From an uncultured Lachnospiraceae bacterium (GTDB lineage: Bacteria > Bacillota > Clostridia > Lachnospirales > Lachnospiraceae), in NCBI GenBank assembly GCA_947643615.1, contig CANRWO010000011.1, forward strand, positions 10,195 through 74,194: a stretch of DNA of 64,000 bases, read 5' to 3'. Shown piece after piece: positions 45,148 to 64,000 of the stretch. Each line of letters opens with the position of its first letter. The first letter of the stretch is position 1. The notes under the pieces were generated by a model. That model did no database searches. It was not told the origin of the DNA and was given only the letters and a program-made list of their open reading frames with translations. The position numbers and the translations under genes are program-made.

Positions 45148-45270
45148 CCTGAAAAACCTGCTGCATAGTTATTGGCTAATCAGGCATTTCACGAACCTGA
45201 TATGAGTGGCCGCTTCAGCGGACAAATGGGAGTTATCAAGATACTTTCGGAAATAGAAACGAGGATAACC

Positions 45271-46029
45271 ATGAGTGAAAAGATTTCCCTGTACGGATTT
45301 AATAACCTGACCAAATCCCTGAGTTTTAACATATATGACGTGTGTTATGCAAAGTCCCAGCGGGAGCAAAAGGACTATATTGCCTATATTGACAGACAGT
45401 ATAATTCCGAACGTTTGGTTAAGCTTTTGACCAATGTGACGGATATGATCGGAGCCCATGTGTTGAATATATCCAGCCAGGACTATGAACCCCAGGGCAG
45501 TTCCGTGACGATTTTGATTGGGGAAAAGAGTAAGATACCTGCCGGGGATACTACCGTGGCACATCTGGACAAGAGCCATATTACGGTGCACACTTACCCG
45601 GAGTACCACCCCGAGACGTGCCTGGCCACCTTCCGGGTAGATATTGATGTGGCTACCTGTGGGGAGATCACACCGCTTTCCACCCTGGACTACCTTATTG
45701 GGTCTTTCGATTCGGATATCATTACCATGGATTACCGGGTGAGGGGTTTTACCAGGGATCTGGGCGGGCATAAATTGTTCATGGACCACAGAATCACATC
45801 CATTCAGGACTATATTGCGGGAGAGACATTGCAGAAATACGACGCAGTGGACATTAATGTTTATGACGCAAACATTTTTCATACAAAAATGCTGATCAAA
45901 GATATTGATTTGCAGAATTATCTTTTTAATAGTGACGTCTATGAGCTGCCGCCGAAGACCAGGCTGGAAATTATAGACAATCTGCGGAGAGAGATGATTG
46001 AAATATTCAGCGGGAGAAATGTATATTAG
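45271..46029 (+). CDS. speD: S-adenosylmethionine decarboxylase proenzyme
   Basis: [33 protein letters not shown] self-cleavage motif, DV.TCG.I.PL. Confidence 0.95.
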
Positions 46030-46061
46030 AATTATCCGGATAAGATAAGGAAGACAGAGGC

Positions 46062-47522
46062 ATGGGGCGTTTTAATCAGGCAAGGGCGCCTATTTATGAG
46101 GCGTTGGAGGAATTCAGGAAAAACAGGGTGGTGCCCTTTGACGTACCGGGGCATAAGAGAGGCAGGGGCAACCCGGAGCTGGTAGGGCTTTTGGGGCAGC
46201 AGTGTGTGGGGATTGACGTCAATTCCATGAAACCCCTGGACAACCTCTGCCACCCCGTGTCCGTGATCCGGGAGGCGGAGGAGATGGCGGCGGAGGCGTT
46301 CGGCGCGGCGTACGTTTTCCTCATGGTGGGAGGGACTACTTCCTCGGTACAGAGCATGGTGCTCAGCGCCTGCAAACGGGGGGACAAGATCATTCTCCCC
46401 AGAAATGTCCACAGGAGCGTTATCAATGCCCTGGTACTGAACGGCGCAATTCCCATATATGTAAATCCGGACACAGATAACAGACTGGGGATCGCCCTGG
46501 GCATGAAGGTTTCCCAGGTGGAAAAGACCATCCGGGAGAACCCCGACGCGGTGGCAGTGTTGGTGAATAATCCGACTTATTACGGGATATGCTCCGACTT
46601 GCGGAGCATTGTGAAACTGGCCCACTCCCATGGAATGAAGGTTTTGGTGGACGAGGCTCACGGAACGCATTTTTATTTTGGGGAGAATATGCCTGTGTCA
46701 GCCATGGAGGCGGGGGCGGATCTGGCGGCGGTTAGTATGCATAAGTCCGGCGGAAGCCTGACCCAAAGTTCCTTTCTGCTGGTGGGAGCCAATATGCATC
46801 CCGGCTATGTGCGGCAGATCATTAATCTGACTCAGACTACCAGTGCGTCCTATCTGCTTTTGGCCAGCCTGGATATTTCCCGAAGGAATTTGGCGCTGCG
46901 GGGAAAAGAGGAATTTCGCAAGGTAACGGCGCTTGCGGAATACGCAAGGGAGGAAATCAACAGGATCGGCGGGTATTATGCCTATACTGCGGAGTTGGTT
47001 AACGGTGACAGCATATATGATTTTGACCGGACCAAGCTCACTGTCAATACGTTGGGGATTGGCCTTGCGGGGATTGAGGTTTATGATGTCCTGCGGGATG
47101 AATATGACATTCAGATGGAGTTGGGGGATATTGCAAATGTCCTTGCTTATATCTCCATCGGAGACAGGGAGCGGGATATGGAGCGCCTGATCAGCGCGCT
47201 TGTGGAGATTAAGCGACAATACCGAAGGGACAATGCAGGAATGTACACTCAGGAATATATAGAGCCTAAGGTTGCGGTTTCCCCACAGAATGCATTTTAC
47301 GCGGAAAAGGAATCTCTTCCGCTTATGGAGACGGAGGGACGTATTTGCAGTGAGTTTGTTATGTGCTATCCTCCCGGGATCCCGATCCTGGCACCGGGCG
47401 AGGAAATCACGGCGGATATCCTGGAGTACATTTCTTATGCCAAGGAGAAAGGCTGCTCCATGACGGGGCCGGAGGATGCGGATATAGAAAGGTTGAACGT
47501 TTTAAAAGAGATTTGGGCATAG
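46062..47522 (+). CDS. Arginine/lysine/ornithine decarboxylase (fold-type I PLP)
   Basis: FDVPGHK, VGGTT, PRNVH, DEAHG, SMHKSGG, TTS.SY, YPPGIP. Confidence 0.92.
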   Translation: MGRFNQARAPIYEALEEFRKNRVVPFDVPGHKRGRGNPELVGLLGQQCVGIDVNSMKPLDNLCHPVSVIREAEEMAAEAFGAAYVFLMVGGTTSSVQSMVLSACKRGDKIILPRNVHRSVINALVLNGAIPIYVNPDTDNRLGIALGMKVSQVEKTIRENPDAVAVLVNNPTYYGICSDLRSIVKLAHSHGMKVLVDEAHGTHFYFGENMPVSAMEAGADLAAVSMHKSGGSLTQSSFLLVGANMHPGYVRQIINLTQTTSASYLLLASLDISRRNLALRGKEEFRKVTALAEYAREEINRIGGYYAYTAELVNGDSIYDFDRTKLTVNTLGIGLAGIEVYDVLRDEYDIQMELGDIANVLAYISIGDRERDMERLISALVEIKRQYRRDNAGMYTQEYIEPKVAVSPQNAFYAEKESLPLMETEGRICSEFVMCYPPGIPILAPGEEITADILEYISYAKEKGCSMTGPEDADIERLNVLKEIWA

Positions 47523-47539
47523 AAAAGGAGGGTTTGTGT

Positions 47540-48400
47540 ATGGAACTTTGGTTTTCGGAGCCACATACGCCGAATGTAAAATTATCCATCCGGGTAGACA
47601 GGCAGCTATACAGCGGCCAGAGCGAGCTTCAGCAGATCGAGGTGTTTGAATCGCCGGAGTTTGGAAGGTTTCTGGTGCTGGATGGCTATATTATGCTGAC
47701 AGAGAAGGATGAATTTATTTATCATGAGATGATTGTGCATGTCCCTATGGCGGTACACCCCCATGTGAAAAAAGTGCTGCTTATCGGCGCCGGGGACGGC
47801 GGCGCGGTGCGGGAGCTTGTCCGTTATCCGGAGATTGAACGGATTGACTTGGTGGAGATCGACGAGGAAGTGATCAAGGTATGTATGGACTATCTTCCTA
47901 AAGTATCCTGTGAGCTTCGCAATGAAAAGGTCAAGATCCATCTGGAGGACGGCTTAAAATATGTGCGGTCCAAAGAAGACGAATACGATCTCATCATTGT
48001 GGATTCCACAGATCCCTTTGGCCCCGGGGAGGGATTGTTTACCAAGGAGTTTTACGGAAACTGCTACAAGGCGCTGAAAGAGGACGGCATCATGGTAAAC
48101 CAGCATGAGAGTCCGTTTTACGAGACGGACGCTACAGCTTGTATGCGCGCCCATAAACGGATTGTGGAGAGCTTTCCCATCAGCCGTGTGTATCAGGCGC
48201 ACATCCCCACTTATCCGTCGGGGCATTGGCTGTTTGGCTTTGCGTCAAAGAAATATCATCCGGTCCATGATATGGACGGGGAGAGATGGCTGGAGCGGGG
48301 ATTGGAGACAAAGTATTATACGCCGAAGCTCCATGAAGGGGCGTTCTGCCTGCCTGCTTATGTAGAGAACCTGCTCAGGAAGGTGGAAGTGCACGGTTAG
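47540..48400 (+). CDS. speE: Spermidine synthase / polyamine aminopropyltransferase
   Basis: GGAGG RBS; LVLDG, YHEMIVH, LIGAGDGG, VEID, IIVDSTDP. Confidence 0.95.
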   Translation: MELWFSEPHTPNVKLSIRVDRQLYSGQSELQQIEVFESPEFGRFLVLDGYIMLTEKDEFIYHEMIVHVPMAVHPHVKKVLLIGAGDGGAVRELVRYPEIERIDLVEIDEEVIKVCMDYLPKVSCELRNEKVKIHLEDGLKYVRSKEDEYDLIIVDSTDPFGPGEGLFTKEFYGNCYKALKEDGIMVNQHESPFYETDATACMRAHKRIVESFPISRVYQAHIPTYPSGHWLFGFASKKYHPVHDMDGERWLERGLETKYYTPKLHEGAFCLPAYVENLLRKVEVHG

Positions 48401-48469
48401 GACTGCGTGTGCCACCTGCAAAGGCGACAGAATGGATGACTTATTTAAAAGGGGAGGTAAAATCAAAAG

Positions 48470-49747
48470 ATGGCTAAAATATTGATTATCGGCTGCGGAG
48501 GCGTTGCCTCCGTGGCTATTCAGAAGTGTGCGGGAAAGGCGGATGTGTTTTCCGAGATCTGCATTGCCAGCCGCACAGTAGGCAAATGTGACGCTTTGAA
48601 GGCAAAAATAGAGGAAGAATTCCAAAAAACCGGAAGGAAGCTTCCCGTTATCACCACTGCAAGGGTGGACGCTGATCATGTGGAAGAATTGGAGGCGCTG
48701 ATCAAAAAGGAACAGCCGAAGGCAGTTTTGAACCTGGCGCTGCCGTATCAGGACTTGACCATTATGGATGCCTGCCTTGCCTGTGGTGTGGATTATATTG
48801 ATACCGCAAATTATGAGGCGGAGAATACGGAGGATCCCCAGTGGAGGGAAGCTTATGAAAAGCGCTGCAGGGAGAAAGGGTTTACGGCTTACTTTGACTA
48901 TTCCTGGCAGTGGGCATATAAGGAGCGGTTTGAAAAAGCAGGGATTACGGCTCTTTTGGGAAGCGGCTTTGATCCCGGCGTCACCAGTGTGTTTTCTGCC
49001 TATGCCCTGAAGCACTATTTTGACGAGATTCATTATATTGACATCATGGACTGCAACGGCGGTGACCATGGCTATGCCTTTGCCACCAATTTTAATCCCG
49101 AAATTAATCTGCGGGAGGTTTCCGCCAACGGCTCTTACTGGGAGGACGGCCATTGGGTGGAGACAAAGCCTATGGAGATCAAGCGGGAATACGATTTTGC
49201 CCAAGTGGGAAAGAAGGATATGTACCTTCTGCACCATGAGGAAATCGAGTCCCTGGCAAAAAACATTCCCGGCATTAAGAGGATCCGCTTCTTTATGACT
49301 TTTGGGCAGAGCTACCTGACCCATATGAAATGCCTGGAAAATGTAGGCATGCTGCGCACGGATCCGGTCATGTTCGAAGGGAAGGAGATTGTGCCCATCC
49401 AGTTTTTAAAAGCGCTTCTTCCTGATCCCGCCTCCTTGGGCCCCCGGACAGTGGGTAAGACAAACATCGGCTGTATTTTTACCGGTGTGAAGGACGGCGC
49501 GGAGAGATCCATCTATATTTACAATGTCTGTGACCATCAGGAGTGTTATAGGGAACTGGGTTCACAGGCCATCTCTTACACCACCGGCGTCCCGGCTATG
49601 ATCGGCGCCATGCTGGTGATGGACGGCACTTGGAAGAGACCGGGTGTGTTCAATGTAGAAGAGTTTGACCCCGACCCTTTTATGGAGGCCCTGAACGAAT
49701 ACGGCCTGCCTTGGGTGGTGGAGGAGAACCCGGTTATGATAGATTGA
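48470..49747 (+). CDS. Carboxyspermidine dehydrogenase (saccharopine dehydrogenase family)
   Basis: IIGCGGVA, NLALPYQDL, GSGFDPG, FATNFNPEINLRE, HEEIESL, YTTGVPA; polyamine operon context. Confidence 0.92.
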   Translation: MAKILIIGCGGVASVAIQKCAGKADVFSEICIASRTVGKCDALKAKIEEEFQKTGRKLPVITTARVDADHVEELEALIKKEQPKAVLNLALPYQDLTIMDACLACGVDYIDTANYEAENTEDPQWREAYEKRCREKGFTAYFDYSWQWAYKERFEKAGITALLGSGFDPGVTSVFSAYALKHYFDEIHYIDIMDCNGGDHGYAFATNFNPEINLREVSANGSYWEDGHWVETKPMEIKREYDFAQVGKKDMYLLHHEEIESLAKNIPGIKRIRFFMTFGQSYLTHMKCLENVGMLRTDPVMFEGKEIVPIQFLKALLPDPASLGPRTVGKTNIGCIFTGVKDGAERSIYIYNVCDHQECYRELGSQAISYTTGVPAMIGAMLVMDGTWKRPGVFNVEEFDPDPFMEALNEYGLPWVVEENPVMID

Positions 49748-49821: not shown

Positions 49822-51000
49822 TTATGTTTCATCAATAAGTTCTCCTTCAGCATTGTATATTTTTATTCCTTTGGGATAGAAATCCAAGCATGTAACCGTT
49901 TCAAGTAACATGTCGGTTAAATATATTTTATAGACCCCGGTATTTAATTGTACAATATAGGTATTGTCCGGTGAGAGTACGATGGTGGTTTCCGTAAGTT
50001 CAGGCGGACAATAATAAGCTTCCAGAGTGTACAAGTGCGATACCAGGTATACGCACACCGTCATGGCTGTCAGCAGGAAAGTGACAGCCGCTTTTTTACC
50101 CGGGGAAGTGTCGTGAAAAAGCATGATACAACGCTTTTTTAAATCACTGTTCCGTGCGTGTAAAAGGAAAGTGGAATCCTTTTTAAGGTAACCGGGTGCC
50201 TCTGAGGCAGATGCAAGAGCCTGCTTGTGCATGTATAGAAGACAGTCCGCGTACTCTTTCGTGGCAGCGGGATTTTCATGGACTAATCTTCTGTCAATAG
50301 ACATTTCCAGCAGGAGATTGGCCTGCTTCTGCAGTAGGATGCAGATTGGATTCCACCAATATATGTAAGAAAACAGCCGTACTGCAAGCTTGATGAAATG
50401 GTCGTGGTGAAAGTAATGTAAGGCTTCATGACGAAGGATATATTGCAGCTGACCGGGAGTGATGGCTATATCCTTTGGAATCAGAATGTATGGCTTTCTA
50501 AAGTAAAAGAGAGAAGGGATGTCCAACCCTCTCAGTTCTACAACACTAAAAATATTTTCTTTGTCATAACAAGTGCAAATATGGTCTAAGGGTTCCTTGT
50601 ACCGGGGCATATCCGTGGCATCTGTGCCGTATTTCAAAATATAGTTTCTGGAATGAAAACAATTCCTGGTCCCCAAAATGAGCTTGACAATAATGCCGCA
50701 GACCCATATGAGCTCAAATATACCCCAATAGGATACTCGGAACCCCCTAATATACATGCGGGTTGACTGGATGGCGGTTAGAGCCTTTGATATGGTTTGC
50801 GGAGGAATAACATTAACGGCAAAGGGGAACTCATAGGGAAAGAGCAGCCGGAGAATAGCCACTACAACTATAACTGCTAATAAATTACTGCCCGCATTTG
50901 CCATTATATTCCAATTTAGAAATGCCACAGCAATCAATATGGCGAGAATGCTGCCGGCTAAAATTGCCATGTATACAGTTGAAAACGAGTATTGCAGCAT
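49822..51000 (-). CDS. BlaR1/MecR1-type M56 membrane metalloprotease with a short C-terminal sensor
   Basis: LR...P.FP, LRHEALHYFHHDH, YWWNP, EMSID; C-terminal TM plus about 65 aa; no penicillin-binding domain. Confidence 0.85.
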   Translation of the reverse strand: MLQYSFSTVYMAILAGSILAILIAVAFLNWNIMANAGSNLLAVIVVVAILRLLFPYEFPFAVNVIPPQTISKALTAIQSTRMYIRGFRVSYWGIFELIWVCGIIVKLILGTRNCFHSRNYILKYGTDATDMPRYKEPLDHICTCYDKENIFSVVELRGLDIPSLFYFRKPYILIPKDIAITPGQLQYILRHEALHYFHHDHFIKLAVRLFSYIYWWNPICILLQKQANLLLEMSIDRRLVHENPAATKEYADCLLYMHKQALASASEAPGYLKKDSTFLLHARNSDLKKRCIMLFHDTSPGKKAAVTFLLTAMTVCVYLVSHLYTLEAYYCPPELTETTIVLSPDNTYIVQLNTGVYKIYLTDMLLETVTCLDFYPKGIKIYNAEGELIDET

Positions 51001-51447: not shown

Positions 51448-51669
51448 ATCTATTTCCTCACTGTCTGGTCTTTTGGTCTAGTTATTTTATCAAAATATTA
51501 TTTTCCATTAGAGTGTATAATATCAATTTACATTTTTCAACAAATATTAACAAATACACTCAAAATAATTCAAAAAATACTAAATTTAAAAAATAATTGA
51601 CAAATAATGACAAGTGTGAATAATATTTTATTATCAGTACTAACCATTCTGAAAGGAGGCAGGAAAATT

Positions 51670-53487
51670 ATGCGAAGGGGTACGTATCGGACAATCTTGT
51701 CTCTGATTATGGTAATTGCTTTCTTTTTCCTGTCAGTGCCTTGCGTTGGAAATGCGACTGAGAAGACTGACGGTGGTAAATCGGTGATTTTCCTCCTGGA
51801 TGCCAGCGGGAGCATGAAGTCAAATGATCCGGACAGGTTCGTAATAGATGATATCGTACAGATGATTTACACTCTTCCCACAGAATATCAAGCGGGATTT
51901 GTAGCATACGGGGCAGAGATTACCGCGGAGCAGGGATTGGCGGGAAACGGTGGCAGAAATAATGTGGCGGCAGCCGTTAAGGGAGTAGAGTACAAGGGTT
52001 ACAGCAATGCCGGCATCGGATTGCAGCGTGCGGTTGAGTTACTTTTGGAAGATGCCGGGAAAGACAGGCATATTGTCATGTTTTCGGACGGAGAGATCCT
52101 GATGGACAGCCAGGAAATGACGGAAGCGTCCGGGGCACTTTTTCAAAGCGCAGTCGGACAAGCAGAGGAGGCAGGGATAACTATCCATGTTCTCGGCCTG
52201 GGCGAGGACATGGAAGATATGGGCAATTCTATCTTTGATGCGGCGCACAGGACCGTTGGCCAAAGCTGCCATGCTGCGCAGGCGGAGGATATCCGGAAGG
52301 CAATTAGTCAGGTTTTAGTTGAAGGACTGGCCATCAAGCGCTCCACTGTGGCTGTTGTGGAAGCAGGTGGGGAAACGGAAACGGTAGGCGTGGAGCTTCC
52401 CTATGCCTATGCCGATAAGCTTCGCATATTGCTCACCAGCAACGCGCCCATACAGAATGTAAGCGCTAATTTCCAGGCGGAAAGCGCACGGCAGTTTAAC
52501 GGAGAAAGACATGCGCTGATTGAGATAGAAGACCCTTCGGGAGGAGAATTGGAGATCCGCTTTGAAGGTATTCCGGGCAGCCAGGTAGAGATTTACGTCA
52601 TTCCCGAATATTATGTGGATGTCCGGGCGGAGGTCATTTACACGGACAGGGTGCCGGAGGAAGCCGGGGACATACAGGGAGATAATATTATGGCTGAAAA
52701 GGACGCATATTATCAGCGCACTGCCTGTATCCTATACACTTTTTCCAGAGCGGACAATGAAAATATTTTATTGTGGAATACAGATTATTTCCAGCACAAC
52801 AAGATTTCGGTCACTGTAAATGAGGAGACAAAAGAGCTGGCTTTGAATGAAGGAAGGCTGCAAATCGAGGAAAGAGTGACGGACTCCTGTATCTATGAAG
52901 CCTGGTTCGACTATTCGCAGCTTCCGGTTAATGTGGTCGGCACGGATTCTGCCAGGGTGGAGCTGGAAGGTGCGCCTCCGCTGCCGGAACCCCAAGAGGA
53001 ACCCAAGCCGCCGTACTTGCTGATCGGAGCGTCTATAGTCCTTTTACTTATCTTGCTGACAATTGTTTTGTTATGGCTCCGGCGAAGGCCCAAGCCTGTT
53101 CCGGCGCCGTTGGAGGAAAGGCCGGAACCCAGCAGATACAGTTATGTGGGGATGCTGAAGTTATATATTACCAGGACGAGAGCCGGATACGACATCCCGC
53201 CTTTATCTTTTAACCTGTTCAGGACTTCCGCGGGGAGGGTGATATCCCTGCAGGAAATCATAAAGAACTGTGATGTGAAGGAGGAGTTTGCCGGGGCGGA
53301 AGCAATTTACTTTAAGGCAGGCCCAGGCAGGACGTTGATCCTCACCAACAACTCGGACTGCACCATTATGAAGAACCGTGAGATATTGATGAAAAAGCAA
53401 AGCTATCAGCTGCCCTTGGATTCTAAGGTGGATATTTCCTTTGAGGACGAGATCAGTGAATTGACCTTTCAGTACAAGGAGGCGTAG
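51670..53487 (+). CDS. Single-pass vWA-domain surface protein with a cytoplasmic beta domain
   Basis: Signal peptide; MIDAS LLDASGSM...FSDG; Ig-like region; Pro-rich linker; TM plus RRRPK; about 120-aa cytoplasmic beta-rich tail. Confidence 0.88.
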   Translation: MRRGTYRTILSLIMVIAFFFLSVPCVGNATEKTDGGKSVIFLLDASGSMKSNDPDRFVIDDIVQMIYTLPTEYQAGFVAYGAEITAEQGLAGNGGRNNVAAAVKGVEYKGYSNAGIGLQRAVELLLEDAGKDRHIVMFSDGEILMDSQEMTEASGALFQSAVGQAEEAGITIHVLGLGEDMEDMGNSIFDAAHRTVGQSCHAAQAEDIRKAISQVLVEGLAIKRSTVAVVEAGGETETVGVELPYAYADKLRILLTSNAPIQNVSANFQAESARQFNGERHALIEIEDPSGGELEIRFEGIPGSQVEIYVIPEYYVDVRAEVIYTDRVPEEAGDIQGDNIMAEKDAYYQRTACILYTFSRADNENILLWNTDYFQHNKISVTVNEETKELALNEGRLQIEERVTDSCIYEAWFDYSQLPVNVVGTDSARVELEGAPPLPEPQEEPKPPYLLIGASIVLLLILLTIVLLWLRRRPKPVPAPLEERPEPSRYSYVGMLKLYITRTRAGYDIPPLSFNLFRTSAGRVISLQEIIKNCDVKEEFAGAEAIYFKAGPGRTLILTNNSDCTIMKNREILMKKQSYQLPLDSKVDISFEDEISELTFQYKEA

Positions 53488-53640: not shown

Positions 53641-55830
53641 ATGGATACGATAAACCAGACAAACAGGACGTTGCTTCTGGACGTCATCAATCCGGATATG
53701 CCGGACCTGCTCACTCTGGTGGGAGATGTGAAAGGGATTGACAGCTTGGATGACGACAAGATGAAGGAGATCAACCAATACCTGGAATGTCACAGCTACG
53801 AAGAGATGGAGAGAAAATTTAAGCCGGTAGTGTGGTCCTTTTTTGACGCGAATTCTCAGTCTGTAAAGTATACGCTGGAGAGACCGGAAAATATGCCCGA
53901 ATCTATGTTGACGCCGATCTATCTCAATGAGTTTGAAAATTTCCAGAAAACCATCCTTTCTGTGATGCAGTCCAGGAAGGCACAGGGGCTTTTAAACACG
54001 GAGTTCAGCTATGAGAAAGTGTTGGAAATGATATCTCCCAAGAAAGTGATGGAAGATATCAAGCAGGTGCGGAAGGAGCTTCAGTACAACTATAAAAAAT
54101 TCACGGAACTGGAGGAAGGCGACCCCCAGAAATTGGACGTCGGTGACAAGCTGAACCTTCTGTTTGAGGATGCCAGCACAAATTACAATAACGTAATGGC
54201 TATGCTTCCCCTTGCCATTGAAGATATCAAGACAAGGCTGTTTCTGGGCACCAGCGAGCAACAGGGAGAGCATGCGGAAATTGTTCCCGGATATCTGTCA
54301 ATGGGAAACAATGGTGAATTAAAGGTTTTGGAAGCAAAAAAAGAAGAAAGCACAACCCTGGCGTTGCGTGATGACAATATCAACACAGGATTGATTGAGG
54401 CTATAAAGGAGGACTACCAGGCGCTGAACAATGATTCCAACGAGTATGTGCAGAATTTAGTAGTGCGTACCTTCTGCCCGTTGGTATCCACAGAGCAGAC
54501 GGTAGTCGATGTGGAAGCCGAGGTCGCCAACTATAACAGTTATTTGGAGTTTTACCGTGCCTCCAAGGATAACTTTATCAAGGTGGTAAAACCCCTTTTG
54601 GAGAAGCTTTTGGGAATACGGATGTTTTTTGACCAGTACAAAGCAAAAGCAAAGGGGATGGCGCCCACTTTAGTGGTGGCGAACATATCCCCCGAAATGC
54701 TGGCTAAAAGCTCCAACCTTCCCCGGCTGATAACTTACTTAAACACCACCAACAGTAAAAATAATTTTAAGGATACCATATGGTATGCCATATATCCCAA
54801 TGTGGCGTGGAGCCAGGATGTGACCAACCGGATCCAGAGGGAACGTTTCAAAGGGAACGTGAAGAAGGCGGGGACGGATGTGTACAGCATGGAAGCGCTG
54901 GCAACCCTGCTGGATGTGTTCAAGGACTATCGGGTGGAGACTTTCTTTTCCTTTGAAAACAGGGAGGAGACCACCTTCAATGCTTTGGCCGCGGAAGGAA
55001 TTGAGAAAGCCATCGAAAAATGTGCTTCTTTGACAGGGAAGGCATTCAGTGAATTTGCTATTCCGGTACTGCCTAACTTTACGGTGATACCAAGGAATAA
55101 GTCCGGCATTATTTTGGACAGCAGGATGAAGGTTACGGATGGCAATGTGGTAGAACTGTCCAAGGAAAAAGAAGATATTATGCGGCTTTGGATAGAGGGT
55201 GTCTATATCAACGGCGCCTATGTGGCTGCCGGTTTCCGGGCGGCCTGCCAATGCCCGGAATTTCTGAAGGATCATTTCAGCCGGACGAAGATCAAGACAG
55301 ACATGGAGCTGCCCGGAGTGCGCTTTGACATTGAGGCCGGCAATAATTCTCTGTTAGCCTATACTACCATGCCAAAGGAAATTACCGGGTTTACCAACAG
55401 CATCAAGGCACAGATCAACCAGAAGAACTTCGGTTGGGTATTCTCCTCGGAAAATGCATCCTTAAATGGGGAGGATATTACCAATATTTCCGTGTACAAG
55501 GCGAGGAACTTGCTGTATGATTCGGAACATTCCTCCTATGAGCCGGTGTACAAGACACAGGTGACAACGTACATAGAGAGGATTCTGCGGTATGTAACAG
55601 GGGATTTCAAGGAGGATAATATCAAGAATTTCTTTTCCAATAATCCTCAAAGCCAAAAGAGCAAATGGCTGGCCAAAAAGGAATGCATCAATGCCATTAT
55701 TATGGATGGTGACAGCCTGGATTATAATATTGACGATTCCAATGGAGTGTGTGAGCTGACCATATCCTTCAATGGAAGTCCCAGAAATTTGGAAGTTCAA
55801 ATCAATCGTTTGACTTCAAATATATCTTAA
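53641..55830 (+). CDS. 729-aa protein; candidate contractile sheath subunit (TssC-like C-terminal half)
   Basis: Coding status clear (GGAG RBS, long ORF). Function by eye only: LTGKAF, VYINGAYVAAG, GVRFDI, terminal beta strands resemble Bacteroidetes-type TssC as I recall it. Confidence 0.55.
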   Translation: MDTINQTNRTLLLDVINPDMPDLLTLVGDVKGIDSLDDDKMKEINQYLECHSYEEMERKFKPVVWSFFDANSQSVKYTLERPENMPESMLTPIYLNEFENFQKTILSVMQSRKAQGLLNTEFSYEKVLEMISPKKVMEDIKQVRKELQYNYKKFTELEEGDPQKLDVGDKLNLLFEDASTNYNNVMAMLPLAIEDIKTRLFLGTSEQQGEHAEIVPGYLSMGNNGELKVLEAKKEESTTLALRDDNINTGLIEAIKEDYQALNNDSNEYVQNLVVRTFCPLVSTEQTVVDVEAEVANYNSYLEFYRASKDNFIKVVKPLLEKLLGIRMFFDQYKAKAKGMAPTLVVANISPEMLAKSSNLPRLITYLNTTNSKNNFKDTIWYAIYPNVAWSQDVTNRIQRERFKGNVKKAGTDVYSMEALATLLDVFKDYRVETFFSFENREETTFNALAAEGIEKAIEKCASLTGKAFSEFAIPVLPNFTVIPRNKSGIILDSRMKVTDGNVVELSKEKEDIMRLWIEGVYINGAYVAAGFRAACQCPEFLKDHFSRTKIKTDMELPGVRFDIEAGNNSLLAYTTMPKEITGFTNSIKAQINQKNFGWVFSSENASLNGEDITNISVYKARNLLYDSEHSSYEPVYKTQVTTYIERILRYVTGDFKEDNIKNFFSNNPQSQKSKWLAKKECINAIIMDGDSLDYNIDDSNGVCELTISFNGSPRNLEVQINRLTSNIS

Positions 55831-58422: not shown

Positions 58423-58473
58423 GTATGAAGAATTAATTGGCTTATGTGCCAAAGCACGCAAAGGGGTATAAGC

Positions 58474-59319
58474 ATGAATACGGTTTTTTTAGTGATTGTC
58501 ATATTGGTGATCATCATTATCCTGTTGGAAATCGTGAAATGGCGGATTCCGGAAAAAGCGGAGAGCGGACCGGATACCGATGTAGGAACTTGTATGACGA
58601 TTGGAAGCAGGGATGTGCAGGAGGACCAGCTTGGAGTCATGGAGACCGCAGCGGGTATTATGGCAGTGTTGGCGGACGGTGCGGGAAAAACTTATGGAGG
58701 CCGGATTGCGGCCAGGACAGCCGTGAACACATTCCAGGATATTTTTCGGGACTATAATGCTTTTAATAACCCCCAATATTATTTCAGAAAAGCTTTCCAC
58801 TGTGCCAACAGGGAAATCCTGAAGGCTGTGGGAGATGAGAGCCGCGGTACAGCCAGCGTGGGATGTGTTATGGCCCGGGGAGGTTTCCTGTACTATGCGC
58901 TGGTGGGAAATGTAAAGGTCTGTGTATTTCGGGAAGATTCTCTAATCCCTGTGTCTGTGGGACACACGGTTGCGGTGATGGCGGAACAGAAATTTCGGGA
59001 AGGTAAGATATCGAGACAGGACACCATAGAACTGCTTGAAAACCAGAGGCTCTATAACTACCTGGGAAAAGACGACTTTCAGGATATTGAATTTTTTGAT
59101 GCCCCCATACGGCTGAAAACAGGAGACATTGTGGCGCTGATGAGCGACGGCGTGTACGACTTTCTGGGTTTTAAAGAGGTAGAAGAGATTCTCCGGGGAA
59201 AAGGCAGCTGCCGGGAAATGGCATTGGCAGTCATTGAAAAAGTGAATTGCGGAGCCGGTGACCAGAAGGACAATGCAAGCGTAATTCTGATCAGGGTGAG
59301 AAACGAGGCTGTGGGATGA
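58474..59319 (+). CDS. Membrane-anchored PP2C/PPM Ser/Thr phosphatase
   Basis: N-terminal TM; GSRDVQED, LADGAG, MSDGV, DNASV motifs all intact. Confidence 0.9.
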   Translation: MNTVFLVIVILVIIIILLEIVKWRIPEKAESGPDTDVGTCMTIGSRDVQEDQLGVMETAAGIMAVLADGAGKTYGGRIAARTAVNTFQDIFRDYNAFNNPQYYFRKAFHCANREILKAVGDESRGTASVGCVMARGGFLYYALVGNVKVCVFREDSLIPVSVGHTVAVMAEQKFREGKISRQDTIELLENQRLYNYLGKDDFQDIEFFDAPIRLKTGDIVALMSDGVYDFLGFKEVEEILRGKGSCREMALAVIEKVNCGAGDQKDNASVILIRVRNEAVG

Positions 59320-61094
59320 GAAAGCAGAATTCGGAATTTTTGACGGCGTTCACGTCTGAAGCCAGCAATGACATCAAAAATACAGATTACTTTGGTTTCG
59401 TGGAACTGGATGATTTTGCGTGCTATGTCATTGCGGACGGGATTGACGACCAGTTGGAGGCTCTGAGTGCAAGACTGGCGGTCACTGCGGCTACCAACGC
59501 ATTTTTAGAGGCCCCGTCCATGGGGCGCCGTACCGTCAAGAAATGCCTCAGGGCAGCCAACAAGGCGCTGTTGGAGGCAAAAAGCAAGACCAAACTGAAG
59601 GCATCTGTGTTGATCGTAGTCACTAACTATGTGAAGCTGCGGTATGGACAGGCGGGCAACATCAGGCTGCGTCTGTACCGCAACGGATTTTTACAGCATG
59701 CCACGGCGGATCAGTCTCTTACGATGGAGCTGGTCCGTGAGGAGAAAGTTCCCCGGGATAAAGTGGCGGAGCATATTGAGAGAAATAATTTATTTACCTA
59801 TCTGGGACAGGAGAAGGATTTCCACCCCCATGTGTCCAAAAAGATCAAGCTGACCAATTCGGACGCGGTAGCGCTATATACGCGCGGAGTGTGGGAGCAT
59901 GTGGATGAAGGGGAGCTGAAGGATTTATTTGCCGATGCCACGGACCAGCCGGAGGAGACCGTGGACGGCATGGAGGATCTTTTGCTGTCAAGGCAGCCGG
60001 GAGACTTACAGAAATATACCTTTGTGGTTATCTTCGCCAATAAATTGTTTGTAGACCCGAACCGGAAGAGAAAGATCCGCAGGGTCATTATGGCCGCTAT
60101 CCCAATCATTACGCTGATTGCAGTCGCGGGGGTGCTGCTGATGCTGCGGCATAACAGGAGAGAAGACAAGAAAGCACAGCTGCAGCTGGCTTATACGGAT
60201 ACTATAGAGTATATACAGATAAATAATTATATCAGGGCGGGAGAGACCTGTGGAAATGCCTATAGTCTGGCGGAGGAGCTAAAGGACCGGGGCATGCAGG
60301 CGGAGTTAGGCAATTGCCGGAAGCTAATCGAGGCGGTCCAGGCTGCACAGGGCCTTTTGGACGCTGAAGAGTACGCAGAGGCACAGAGCGCGTTTTTAGA
60401 GGCGGCGAAGCAGTCGGCGTATGTGGACAATTTGGGTTTGGATTATATCAAAGAAAAACTGGAATTGACGGCAGGCTATATCTCCGTGTATGACTCCATC
60501 TACCTGGGAGACAGCCTGATGCAGAACCTGCAGTATGACAGGGCAGAAGAGAAATACCTGGAAGCAAAGGCACAGGCTTTGAAGCTCTATTTTGACAGTG
60601 GGCGCAGCGCGGCAATAGAAGCGCTGGAGAAGCTGTATGAGGAACGGAGGGCACTGGCAGAGGCGGAAGAAGAGGCGAGGCAGGAACAGCTTGCAGCAGA
60701 GGAATCAGGGGCAAATTTTATTGCCCAGGGCGACGTGGTATTTGCCCAGGGAGATTATGAGAGTGCTTTGGTGTATTATACCTCTGCACTGCAAAAGTAT
60801 GAACAGCTGGGGGATGAAATCCAAAAAGAAGCAGTGCAGGCAAAATTGGATGTCACAATGCGGAAAATAGAGGATAAGGATAAACTGGCTTCGGAGGCAG
60901 ACGGGTATATGGCCCAGGCTTCCAGTGCCATGGACGCCGGGGACTATATCGGAGCAAGGAAATACTATCTGTTGGCCAGGGATGTATATGCCACCATAAA
61001 GGATGAAGAAGGGTTGGGTGAGGTTTCCAGAAAGATGGAGATGCTGGATATTAAGGAAAGCAGCCAGCCACCGGTGCAGGAAAGCGAGGAATAG
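59316..61094 (+). CDS. PP2C-like domain (degenerate), TM helix and TPR/coiled-coil ectodomain
   Basis: IADGID retained but YTRGV replaces SDG and KYTF replaces DN; TM, then tandem Ala/Tyr-rich TPR-like helices; ATGA overlap. Confidence 0.8.
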   Translation: MRKQNSEFLTAFTSEASNDIKNTDYFGFVELDDFACYVIADGIDDQLEALSARLAVTAATNAFLEAPSMGRRTVKKCLRAANKALLEAKSKTKLKASVLIVVTNYVKLRYGQAGNIRLRLYRNGFLQHATADQSLTMELVREEKVPRDKVAEHIERNNLFTYLGQEKDFHPHVSKKIKLTNSDAVALYTRGVWEHVDEGELKDLFADATDQPEETVDGMEDLLLSRQPGDLQKYTFVVIFANKLFVDPNRKRKIRRVIMAAIPIITLIAVAGVLLMLRHNRREDKKAQLQLAYTDTIEYIQINNYIRAGETCGNAYSLAEELKDRGMQAELGNCRKLIEAVQAAQGLLDAEEYAEAQSAFLEAAKQSAYVDNLGLDYIKEKLELTAGYISVYDSIYLGDSLMQNLQYDRAEEKYLEAKAQALKLYFDSGRSAAIEALEKLYEERRALAEAEEEARQEQLAAEESGANFIAQGDVVFAQGDYESALVYYTSALQKYEQLGDEIQKEAVQAKLDVTMRKIEDKDKLASEADGYMAQASSAMDAGDYIGARKYYLLARDVYATIKDEEGLGEVSRKMEMLDIKESSQPPVQESEE

Positions 61095-61103
61095 ACGGAA
61101 GGC

Positions 61104-62459
61104 ATGGCTGTGTATAGTAATGACGGAAAAGAGGTGCCGGGTTTGGAAGAAAACAGCGGATTTGATATGGAAGAATATATTAACAGGCGTATGCTGGAAA
61201 TTTCCAGCCTGGAAGACAGGGTTCTGTATAGGGAAATTGTGGGAGACGTTCTTCTGAAGTTATACCATTATAATCAGAAGTCCTATGAAAGGCTGGAAGG
61301 CAGGATACAGGGCGAAGTCAGGCCTGAACAGGGCAGCTACGCAGTATATCTGACCATGACTGACAGGGAACATTATGATGCCACGGATGAATTCATGTAT
61401 CCCATGGCGGAGGAAGATGTCCGGAAGACGGAAGTTTCCTACCAGGATATACGGGAAGCTCTGGCAGAAAAGAGAAAATTGCGGCTTTATTCCGTTTTCC
61501 TGGCTACAAGCGCCTCCAATGTATATCGCATATTGCATGAGAACAGGGAATTCCATGGGACTATCCGAACCAAGAACAGGGAGTACAAGGGAACCTTCAC
61601 GGTAGGGCGAAATGAAAAGTACCTGAATATGGTGAAGGAGCTATACTATATATTTGCCGTAAACTACCAACCCTGGATAACGGTGTGCGAAGCTTATCTG
61701 ACCAAGATATTGGACGTATATTTATGTTCCGCGGAGAGCCTGCCGGAAAAAGATGATATCGAGGAAATACGCGTTGACTTTGAGGAATATTCGGAGTCAG
61801 CCAGGAATGGAATGATACCGCTGTGGAACTTAAAGAAGATTCATGAGAAGACAAGTACTTACCCGGAACCCGGCATTGACAAGATAAATTACGAGCACCA
61901 GATTTTTTCACATCGCTTAAATGCGGACTGCGAGTATCTGGTAATGAATACGGATGTGGAAATTACTAATATCCGGCGCATGAAGGGAGATTTGCTGATC
62001 TCCTGCCCGGCTGACAGGCCCTGCGACTGGAGCCTGTACCAAGTGAATAAATGCAAAGACAGGCGCCGGTATCTTTATCCCGTATTATCCAATTGCTTTA
62101 AGGAAAGCTTCTCGGGGAGTATAACGGAAATGTACCGCAGGAGCATTAAGACGAAAGCGGAGATGGCCCGCCTGATAGAATCCTTTCCCTATGGAGAGTA
62201 TGTACATTTCATGGGAATGGAGATTGGGGAAGAACTTCCTAAGGGTTGGGAAAGCAGCAATTACAATATGGACGGCTTCATACAGGATGAGATCCGCATA
62301 GGGCATTCTAAACTGGTGTTGACGCTTTTCTTTGCACCTGTTGACAGGGAAAATTACCTCAACGAGGACATTATGAGCTTTCTGGTAACACAGGTACAGA
62401 AGCTTTTCCCGGAGTATATGTGTGTCGGGAGCATGGTCCGTGGCTTTGGAGAAGTGTGA
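61104..62459 (+). CDS. 451-aa protein; possible baseplate wedge subunit (TssF-like)
   Basis: Coding status clear; function inferred from position, size and C-terminal alpha/beta pattern only. Confidence 0.35.
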   Translation: MAVYSNDGKEVPGLEENSGFDMEEYINRRMLEISSLEDRVLYREIVGDVLLKLYHYNQKSYERLEGRIQGEVRPEQGSYAVYLTMTDREHYDATDEFMYPMAEEDVRKTEVSYQDIREALAEKRKLRLYSVFLATSASNVYRILHENREFHGTIRTKNREYKGTFTVGRNEKYLNMVKELYYIFAVNYQPWITVCEAYLTKILDVYLCSAESLPEKDDIEEIRVDFEEYSESARNGMIPLWNLKKIHEKTSTYPEPGIDKINYEHQIFSHRLNADCEYLVMNTDVEITNIRRMKGDLLISCPADRPCDWSLYQVNKCKDRRRYLYPVLSNCFKESFSGSITEMYRRSIKTKAEMARLIESFPYGEYVHFMGMEIGEELPKGWESSNYNMDGFIQDEIRIGHSKLVLTLFFAPVDRENYLNEDIMSFLVTQVQKLFPEYMCVGSMVRGFGEV

Positions 62460-62471
62460 AAGCTATGAGCA

Positions 62472-63191
62472 ATGGGCAGCGCAGAAATGAGGGTAAGCAT
62501 GAATTTTATATGGGATATCGCACTCAGGGCAGAGGGGCAGGGCATAACGGAAAGAGAAATGTTCTTTCGCCAGGCAAAAGAATACAGTCCATTTTCGGAA
62601 CAGGCATTTTCCTGTTTGAACGAAAAAGAGATTTCGGGCAGTGAGGTGGAGTTGAATCTTCTTTTTCGGTTTGCGCCTGTTTTCCAGGAAATTTTGCGGG
62701 AAGATGCGGGGGATTGCCCGGAATTTAGTAAATACCTGGTAGATGCGGCGCTACATATGATTTTATATACGGATTTAAGGCAGGGACTGACAAGGCGTGA
62801 CATCTACGTCCGTAGGGTGATGGCAGAATTGGAAGATGGAACCTTTTGGAGAGATGCGTCGGAGGACTTTAAGCTGATTCCCCGTGAAAAGAGGAATCGC
62901 CTGGCTACTTTAGTGCTGGGACAGATGGAGACAGGCTCTTCTCTTATGGGATTTCGAAGGGGCGTGGTGGTGCTGTTCCCGAATGCCATTCTCTACCAGG
63001 TCAGGGCGGACAAAAAGAAACTGCTCCTCTATCTGAAGGAAAATGAAACAGAAAAATATAAGAGAATGCTCCGCTTTGTCCAGGATATGTTTCTGCCGGT
63101 GAGCTACAGCCTGCGCATATTCTGGAAATACCACTTTGGCATCATCGGGGTGGACGAGGCGATGAAAATGGACGAAATAGCCATTTATTAG
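62472..63191 (+). CDS. 239-aa protein; possible baseplate subunit (TssG-like)
   Basis: Coding status clear; C-terminal ...FVQDMFLPVSYSLRIFW pattern is reminiscent of phage/T6SS baseplate proteins; weak. Confidence 0.35.
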   Translation: MGSAEMRVSMNFIWDIALRAEGQGITEREMFFRQAKEYSPFSEQAFSCLNEKEISGSEVELNLLFRFAPVFQEILREDAGDCPEFSKYLVDAALHMILYTDLRQGLTRRDIYVRRVMAELEDGTFWRDASEDFKLIPREKRNRLATLVLGQMETGSSLMGFRRGVVVLFPNAILYQVRADKKKLLLYLKENETEKYKRMLRFVQDMFLPVSYSLRIFWKYHFGIIGVDEAMKMDEIAIY

Positions 63192-63407: not shown

Positions 63408-64000
63408 ATGGATAGATATACCTATACGCTGAACCAGAAAGGCACAAAAGAGGAAAAGCTTCATTACTACACCTTGGAGGAGCTGGAACTGATGACCACT
63501 TACCAGCTTCGTGACATCTGCTGGAAGGAACAGATCATCAACGGAATCCAGGCGCCCCTGGATAAGGAGGAGCTGATCCGGCAGATCATGCGTTTCCGGG
63601 GAAGGAAAAACAACCTGTTTATCACCACACAGGATAAGGAAGGGATGGAGAGGCTGGAGGGGCTGCTCAAGGAGGCTGTCATACATGGCCTCCCCCAGCC
63701 GGTCAAAGGATGTGCCAAAATTATCGTATACAAAGGAGTTGCGGTGACTTACTTTGACCATTTTACCATTGGCTATCGTCCGGAGCTTGTAAACACCAAC
63801 GCTTTGTTGGTGAGTGGGAACCAAATTTGTGCCATCTTTCAGGTAAAGCAATACGGAGGACGGTCAGATTGCCTGTATCTGACGAAAGCGGCAGGAATTA
63901 CGTGCAGGGAATCTGCCGTGAAAAGCTACCGCCTTTATTGTATGGACCGTGCCCAGTCAGAGTGGATATACCGTTTATACCACGCCGATTATGATACCTT
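63408..64000 (+). CDS. Large protein, 3'-truncated by the window; N-terminal HeH/Rho-N-like motif
   Basis: Not in the ORF track. AAGGATGTG RBS; 197 codons with no stop: MDRYTYTLNQKGTKEEKLHYYTLEELELMTTYQLRDICWKEQIINGIQAPLDKEELIRQIMRFRG... Confidence 0.85.
   Translation, partial: MDRYTYTLNQKGTKEEKLHYYTLEELELMTTYQLRDICWKEQIINGIQAPLDKEELIRQIMRFRGRKNNLFITTQDKEGMERLEGLLKEAVIHGLPQPVKGCAKIIVYKGVAVTYFDHFTIGYRPELVNTNALLVSGNQICAIFQVKQYGGRSDCLYLTKAAGITCRESAVKSYRLYCMDRAQSEWIYRLYHADYDT

Follow-up and report, generated by a model that had tools for sequence, protein, structure and literature searches.

This analysis concerns a 64,000-nucleotide stretch of DNA, hereafter the window, from the 3.8-Mb genome of an uncultured Lachnospiraceae bacterium (GenBank assembly GCA_947643615.1, contig CANRWO010000011.1), and one of its genes, which encodes a 729-residue protein with the working label P0001. 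We propose that a non-canonical contractile injection system (CIS) of type VI-like kind in Gram-positive Clostridia is likely to have P0001 as its sheath subunit, a single chain that would take the roles of both TssB and TssC. Predicted structures and sequence profiles agree that residues 285–729 would adopt the contractile-sheath core fold, and, as far as gene order tells, synteny binds the P0001 gene to genes of the tube-like, spike-like and PAAR-like toxin kinds. P0001 is probably a new, very divergent sheath variant and the mark of a class of contractile secretion systems as yet undescribed from Gram-positive bacteria of the gut.

The P0001 gene and its family

The reading frame of P0001 is stop-free over its 729 codons. 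All the strings quoted in a preliminary description of this DNA, made from the letters and their open reading frames, occur in the translation: ASLTGKAFSEFAIPVLPNF at residues 462–480, VYINGAYVAAG at 521–531, ELPGVRFDIE at 556–565, ISVYKARNL at 616–624, YIERIL at 644–649 and CELTISFNG...RNLEVQINR at 704–723. The open reading frame is real. Homologues at E ≤ 1e-3 number more than 2500, many of them 78–97% identical and from Lachnospiraceae, and in an exhaustive search the family comprised 522 clusters at 50% identity, nearly all of full length (680–780 residues). These numbers, together with the 367 species genomes that hold a relative, exclude a chance open reading frame.

Some relatives carry the NCBI name ‘transcriptional regulator’. 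This assignment was considered and rejected: neither Pfam nor NCBIfam detected a DNA-binding domain in P0001 or in 61 diverse relatives, and no regulator was found among the fold matches. The name is thus apparently unfounded, and a misleading database entry is corrected.

Predicted fold of P0001

A full-length AlphaFold2 (AF2) model was built on an alignment of the 61 relatives, which are 23–60% identical, and reached a predicted local distance difference test score (pLDDT) of 86.7 and a predicted TM-score (pTM) of 0.88. When this model was searched with Foldseek against 350,542 Protein Data Bank (PDB) chains, the single significant match was 5myu_A, VipB of the contracted Vibrio type VI secretion system (T6SS) sheath (E 2.1e-5, probability 1.00, TM-score 0.29 on the query and 0.44 on the target); all remaining matches had E ≥ 0.19. 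The PDB holds eight distinct TssC-like sequences, of which one was matched, so the full-length result was treated as fragile and residues 285–729 were therefore modelled separately, on an alignment of 24 sequences (pLDDT 88.3, pTM 0.87). With this second model, all four best matches came from sheath structures. The first, 9n4v_A, is from the extended T6SS sheath of Azotobacter vinelandii (E 8e-7, probability 1.00, TM-score 0.47 on the query and 0.55 on the target, 460 columns) and is homologous to TssC (E 4.5e-112 against the E. coli protein). It was followed by 7b5h_AP, a chain of the Anabaena CIS baseplate entry (E 2.1e-3, probability 0.99), by 7b5h_AO, the Anabaena sheath All3325 (E 2.3e-2, probability 0.85), which is a clear homologue of the sheaths of extracellular contractile injection systems (eCIS), and by 8foy, the contracted tail sheath of phage Milano (E 4.3e-2, probability 0.51). 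Unrelated folds came next, at E ≥ 0.14 and probability ≤ 0.16.

The two models between them matched four different sheath structures (VipB, Azotobacter TssC, All3325 and Milano), with no enzyme, regulator or other fold competing, and a TssC fold, that is, sheath domains 1 and 2, was found in the predicted models through 5myu_A and 9n4v_A. The proposal in the preliminary description that the C-terminal half is sheath- or TssC-like is borne out by these matches, which among the significant ones are solely to contractile sheaths, and by a profile match that exceeds its shuffle null (below). A search of the viral fold library BFVD gave one match, to an unannotated Myoviridae protein (E 1e-4), and was uninformative.

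Sequence profiles point to the sheath C-terminal core

The profile of the P0001 family was compared by hhalign with that of 16 canonical Lachnospiraceae sheaths, collected as matches to PF04984. Residues 583–695 aligned with the C-terminal core of these sheaths (score 32.7, E 0.0055), pairing V..AR.L...YIER.iR of the P0001 family with VWGART...FIEE.I. None of 100 block shuffles attained the real score, which stands about 9 standard deviations above their distribution (15.3 ± 1.9, maximum 20.4). The same set-up was calibrated on true sheath families: two canonical sheath groups reached E 0.08 against each other and TssC reached E 0.26–0.42 against them, so a weak sequence signal is normal among such families. 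The conserved C-terminal core of the contractile sheath superfamily is thus seen in P0001 by both the top four Foldseek matches and hhalign. In terms of family, the significant sequence signal points to sheaths of the phage/eCIS type.

Domain anatomy and conservation

In the AF2 model, a leading beta strand (residues 9–12) belongs to an alpha/beta module that extends to about residue 99; helices occupy 100–331 and give way to an alpha/beta body, and three terminal beta strands lie at 692–698, 703–710 and 713–720. P0001 had been described beforehand as carrying a long helical N-terminus and two terminal beta strands. The helical part is indeed there at 100–331, but it is preceded by the alpha/beta module with its leading strand; likewise, the C-terminal strands are present but are three in number.

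Conservation is highest at residues 1–15 (2.55 bits), at 46–60 (2.66 bits) and at the end of the long helix (316–330), with the core motifs at 466–480, 526–540 and 556–570 also among the most conserved parts. Residues 100–284 are the least conserved (1.29 bits) and contain the low-confidence loops of the model. Conserved termini and core around a variable helical domain fit the pattern expected if termini and core made the polymer contacts. The most variable part of the haloarchaeal sheath is its surface domain 3 (bioRxiv 10.1101/2024.04.11.588991), and we infer that residues 100–284 of P0001 would similarly lie on the sheath surface. The parts that would take part in a sheath ‘handshake’, namely the N-terminal strand 9–12 and the C-terminal strands within 692–720, are both found in the monomer model, and the N-terminus is highly conserved.

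The gene cluster around P0001

Synteny was surveyed in 80 fetched loci, with gene order judged where the flank suffices. The cluster begins with the gene of a VWA-domain membrane protein, followed by P0001, two paralogues of 141 and 142 residues, a J-domain protein, two FHA proteins, a PP2C-type protein, a second PP2C-type protein with a transmembrane segment and TPR-like repeats, and proteins of 451, 239 and 873 residues (Table 1). This order is kept in almost all of the 80 loci with enough flank.

Table 1. Features of P0001 and of its gene cluster in the window
Feature	Positions	Strand	Basis
P0001, sheath-like protein, one gene	53641..55830	+	729 residues; open reading frame, AF2 model and VipB fold match
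P0001 residues 1–99, conserved alpha/beta N-terminal module; candidate TssB-like part and handshake strand	53641..53937	+	model, conservation
P0001 residues 100–284, variable helical domain; candidate equivalent of surface-exposed ‘domain 3’	53938..54492	+	model, conservation
P0001 residues 285–729, predicted sheath-fold core: long helix, alpha/beta body, three C-terminal strands	54493..55827	+	model, Foldseek, hhalign
VWA-domain single-pass membrane protein, first cluster gene	51607..53487	+	Pfam VWA E 9e-12; transmembrane segment in translation
Hcp-like tube candidate 1, 141 residues	55860..56285	+	paralogue of candidate 2; synteny
Hcp-like tube candidate 2, 142 residues	56300..56728	+	PF17642 E 0.098 for own copy; synteny
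J-domain protein, 154 residues	56854..57318	+	Pfam DnaJ E 6e-26; conserved position
Two FHA proteins: 181 residues with N-terminal transmembrane segments, 184 residues with N-terminal Cys-rich segment	57322..58422	+	Pfam FHA E 1e-8, 2e-6
Two PP2C-type phosphatase-like proteins: 291 residues (transmembrane), 592 residues (transmembrane, TPR-like C-terminal half)	58444..61094	+	NCBIfam Stp1_PP2C_phos E 3e-22, 6e-17
Conserved proteins of 451 and 239 residues, baseplate candidates by position only	61104..63191	+	synteny
Divergent Hsp70-like protein of 873 residues, start in window	63408..64000	+	continues past window end (L002:2603-5224)

The VWA gene lies upstream of the P0001 gene in 75 of the 80 loci, and the first Hcp-like candidate always stands directly after the P0001 gene. 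The Pfam family TssD (PF17642, the Bacteroidetes-type Hcp) matches 9 of 21 members of the Hcp-like family, with a best E of 7e-4; comparison of the family with three proteobacterial Hcp proteins by hhalign was not useful (E 0.057 over 15 columns). The second FHA protein is 67–92% identical across loci, and the cluster also conserves both PP2C-like genes. Among the genes of the cluster that were examined, none for a Ser/Thr kinase was noticed. Membrane segments occur in the VWA protein, the first FHA protein and both PP2C-like proteins, with the TPR-like half of the larger phosphatase-like protein lying beyond its membrane segment.

The proteins of 451 and 239 residues gave no Pfam match and no meaningful match in PDB profile searches, and the same holds for the 873-residue protein. 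In the latter, three nucleotide-binding signatures of Hsp70, AIDFGTTNTTAG, IIDCGGGTTDLS and ENGDTDFGGNNLT, are invariant, and hhalign comparison with the Hsp70s of the host genome itself gave E 3e-5 to 1.5e-4. Together with the J-domain protein it makes up a dedicated chaperone pair, which may stand in for ClpV.

On the same contig beyond the window (L002:6742-11350) lies the gene of a 467-residue VgrG-like protein, with the domains Phage_GPD, Phage_base_V and DUF2345 in the order of VgrG. It is followed by genes for a pentapeptide-repeat protein, an Imm11-like protein of 175 residues and a 523-residue protein with a DUF4280 (PAAR-like) domain (E 1e-16) and a long C-terminal extension, which is probably a toxin. 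Because the contig ends soon after the DUF4280 gene, further effector and immunity genes may follow.

Upstream, the cluster boundary is marked by a polyamine biosynthesis block at 45172-49747 (genes for AdoMet decarboxylase, an Orn/Lys/Arg decarboxylase, spermidine synthase and a saccharopine-dehydrogenase-like protein) and by a BlaR1-type M56 peptidase gene at 49822-51000 on the reverse strand.

Comparison with known contractile systems

T6SS is regarded as a weapon of diderm bacteria. Several features ally P0001 with it: the best predicted-fold matches are to TssC proteins (VipB in 5myu_A, and 9n4v_A); the gene stands directly upstream of Hcp-like genes, in a cluster with genes for a VgrG-like protein, a PAAR-like (DUF4280) toxin and FHA and PP2C proteins; and the order of motifs is collinear with that of TssC in the relaxed hhalign alignment. 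Unlike the T6SS sheath, which is made of two proteins, TssB and TssC (VipA and VipB), P0001 is one 729-residue chain with a helical region of about 230 residues. It is not matched by PF05591 (VipA), PF05943 (VipB) or PF18945 (TssC), nor is the profile–profile comparison significant; the host is a monoderm Firmicute, and ClpV, TssE/F/G/K and TssJ/L/M were not recognised. Neither PF05591 nor PF05943 matches anywhere in the 3.8-Mb genome, and P0001 and the 61 relatives likewise have no Pfam match. With PF05591 absent from the whole genome and the VWA protein as the upstream neighbour of P0001, the earlier observation that no separate TssB-like gene is visible holds.

The sheaths of eCIS, of thylakoid-anchored CIS and of phages (Pvc2, Afp2, All3325 and that of phage Milano) resemble P0001 in being single polypeptides, in the significant profile match at the C-terminal core and in the fold matches 7b5h_AO, 7b5h_AP and 8foy. 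They differ in that the Pfam sheath models PF04984 and PF17482 (Phage_sheath_1 and Phage_sheath_1C) do not match P0001, yet readily detect the true eCIS sheath of the same genome, their sole match there. This protein, of 701 residues, belongs to a separate canonical eCIS/PVC-like cluster on another contig (C26:17500-37000), together with Pvc16_N, CIS_tube, Phage_base_V and gp25. The organism therefore appears to have two unrelated-looking contractile systems.

These likenesses raise the question of whether P0001 could belong, as sheath, to a phage-tail-like particle that is released (an eCIS or tailocin) and not to a cell-anchored T6SS-like machine. The significant sequence signal to phage/eCIS-type sheaths, the single-chain architecture shared with eCIS and the inclusion of a CIS sheath and a phage sheath among the fold matches would all suit such a particle. 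We regard it as very improbable all the same, since the best fold matches are to T6SS TssC, the P0001 cluster lacks eCIS hallmark genes and is rich in membrane-anchored FHA, PP2C and VWA proteins, and neither a tail fibre or tape measure nor a Pvc16-type cap or gp25 is recognisable in it, whereas such genes are readily recognised in the genome's true eCIS. Moreover, no relative of P0001 was found in 50,697 phage records and 72,556 plasmids.

Cell-anchored contractile systems of the kind preferred here for P0001 have precedents outside diderm bacteria. Streptomyces is Gram-positive. Its CIS-Sc (PMC12237407) and the haloarchaeal T6SS-like CIS (bioRxiv 10.1101/2024.04.11.588991) are both cell-anchored, and they are precedents for a cytoplasmic contractile machine without an outer membrane. 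Unlike the P0001 cluster, the haloarchaeal CIS was described with standard CIS genes (cis1-16). The P0001 cluster has only the VgrG-like and DUF4280 domains in common with known families, and adds the Hsp70/J-domain pair.

A further parallel may be found in an unknown translocation system, phage-like in kind, of Gram-positives, which was proposed from genes for DUF4280/PAAR_H2 proteins lying beside Phage_GPD genes (PMC5349215, 2016; PMC8651086, 2021). The P0001 cluster holds exactly such a pair of a DUF4280 toxin and a Phage_GPD-like protein. It differs from the postulated system in that the sheath, tube and other CIS genes were not found nearby in those papers, and no eCIS or T6SS genes lay near the orphan genes (PMC8651086). 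P0001 and the Hcp-like pair are candidates for these missing parts. In full-text literature searches, no such system was found described for Firmicutes.

A proposed mode of action and its alternatives

In the proposed system, P0001 subunits would polymerise around a tube built from the two Hcp-like paralogues. Each subunit would swap its conserved N-terminal strand and its C-terminal strands with its neighbours, in the manner of the sheath ‘handshake’. On contraction, the VgrG-like spike would be expelled from the cell with the DUF4280 toxin as its cap. Residues 100–284, the variable helical domain, would face outward, disassembly or assembly of the sheath would fall to the J-domain protein and the divergent Hsp70-like ATPase instead of ClpV, and the FHA, PP2C and VWA membrane proteins may gate assembly at the membrane. 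More broadly, the cluster could represent a new T6SS-like class of monoderm Firmicutes, with a single-chain sheath of TssB–TssC type, a helical domain serving as the handle for disassembly by Hsp70 and J-domain proteins instead of the AAA+ unfoldase ClpV, baseplate and anchor families that escape recognition, and firing through the Gram-positive wall under FHA/PP2C control. This fuller picture is put forward tentatively, as a conceivable outcome that falls somewhat short of probable.

Having proposed a contractile sheath, we would note several observations that weigh against it. First, P0001 and the 61 relatives have no match in Pfam, NCBIfam or PHROGs. A PDB search with the single sequence returned just one 49-residue match, to parvovirus NS1 (E 0.002), which is spurious, and a PDB profile search with the family gave coiled-coil noise only. 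Second, comparison with the T6SS sheath proteins TssC (8 sequences) and TssB, collected from an E. coli chromosome and seven environmental plasmids, gave no robust result. The alignment with TssC was not significant (E 0.64), and its Viterbi score lies within the block-shuffle null, 40% of shuffles attaining the same. The best local path pairs P0001 residues 460–577 with TssC 225–333, which is the very stretch where motif parallels to TssC had been noted by eye, and the relaxed alignment is collinear across 359 columns with a posterior sum above all of 60 shuffles. Thus, the noted order of motifs is recovered, but not at a significant level. For TssB, hhalign gave E 0.07, and E 0.01 with residues 1–110, above 98.7% of shuffles, pairing V.SF.EFL.KF.P.IY of P0001 with ID..NF..VM....P.L; a reversed TssB template scored equally high, and for this reason the match is not relied on. 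The earlier suggestion that the N-terminal part replaces TssB is thus only weakly suggested by these scores. Third, the structural evidence consists of predicted models throughout, each model matched just one of the eight TssC-like sequences of the PDB, and the fold matches have modest TM-scores (0.29–0.55) and high root-mean-square deviations. Fourth, the T6SS components named above, and gp25, were not recognised in the cluster, the host genome's single gp25 match belonging to the separate eCIS. Public runs that contain the sequence, being low-depth contigs of uncertain type, yielded no expression data. Finally, the thick Gram-positive wall is an obstacle to passage of the tube.

Some of these observations would be expected if the sheath resemblance were an artefact of structure prediction and searching, and P0001 either a regulator or an unrelated part of a system for signalling or conflict built on FHA, PP2C and VWA proteins. 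Its advocates could cite the want of a curated family match, the non-significant TssC and TssB comparisons, the fact that each Foldseek search had one match below E 1e-3 with TM-scores of at most 0.55, and the NCBI label on relatives. We nonetheless consider an artefact improbable. The two models matched different sheaths, and sheaths alone, at the top of about 350,000 chains; an independent profile signal links P0001 to the C-terminal core of canonical sheaths, some 9 standard deviations over the null; the gene is located where a sheath gene would be, directly before tube-like genes; and no library detected a DNA-binding domain.

A different objection takes the fold as genuine. P0001 might be derived from a sheath and no longer contract, acting instead, for the Hcp-, VgrG- and PAAR-like proteins, as a chaperone, an assembly platform or a static scaffold, with the toxins exported by lysis, through a channel of membrane proteins or by Hsp70-driven delivery, for example. 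The fold evidence fits this equally well, baseplate and ClpV were not recognised, nothing in the compared sheaths corresponds to the large helical insertion of about 230 residues, and the wall would be an obvious hindrance to firing. However, the most conserved parts of P0001 are the N-terminal strand and the core motifs, which are those used in sheath polymerisation, and genes for tube, spike and tip that occur together are the hallmark of a machine that fires. As to the obstacle of the wall, contractile systems do exist in Streptomyces and haloarchaea (PMC12237407; bioRxiv 10.1101/2024.04.11.588991). Loss of contraction is, in our judgement, rather unlikely, and a contractile P0001 sheath is preferred.

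Distribution and significance

An unknown phage-like delivery system was proposed for Firmicutes because sheath, tube and baseplate could not be found (PMC5349215; PMC8651086). A sheath candidate supported by predicted fold and sequence profile, standing beside tube candidates, makes the question of this delivery system directly testable. If the system fires, gut commensals would have a means of contact-dependent antagonism that had so far escaped notice, and recycling by Hsp70, if true, would be a new solution to sheath recycling.

Relatives of P0001 are encoded in at least 367 species genomes, and abundant gut groups are among the carriers: Lachnospiraceae, Oscillospiraceae and one Faecalibacterium genome, a metagenome-assembled genome (MAG). 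Carriers include Acetatifactor, Roseburia, Anaerocolumna, Lachnotalea, Intestinimonas and Clostridium boliviensis. Candidates for a carrier that can be cultivated are Lachnotalea glycerini DSM 28816, Anaerocolumna jejuensis DSM 15929, Roseburia sp. 1XD42-69 and Clostridium boliviensis E-1. The spread is patchy, with relatives in 13 of the 201 genera sampled from the family and in 9 of the 401 genomes sampled from the phylum. Relatives were also recorded in a ‘Treponema sp.’ MAG, on a 4-kb contig, and in a ‘Pelosinus fermentans’ MAG, which reflects either mis-binning or transfer outside Clostridia. In one genome of the same family (C39:3345-5504), the homologue is in three pieces, with TAA stops and one piece on the opposite strand, and is probably a decayed or rearranged copy.

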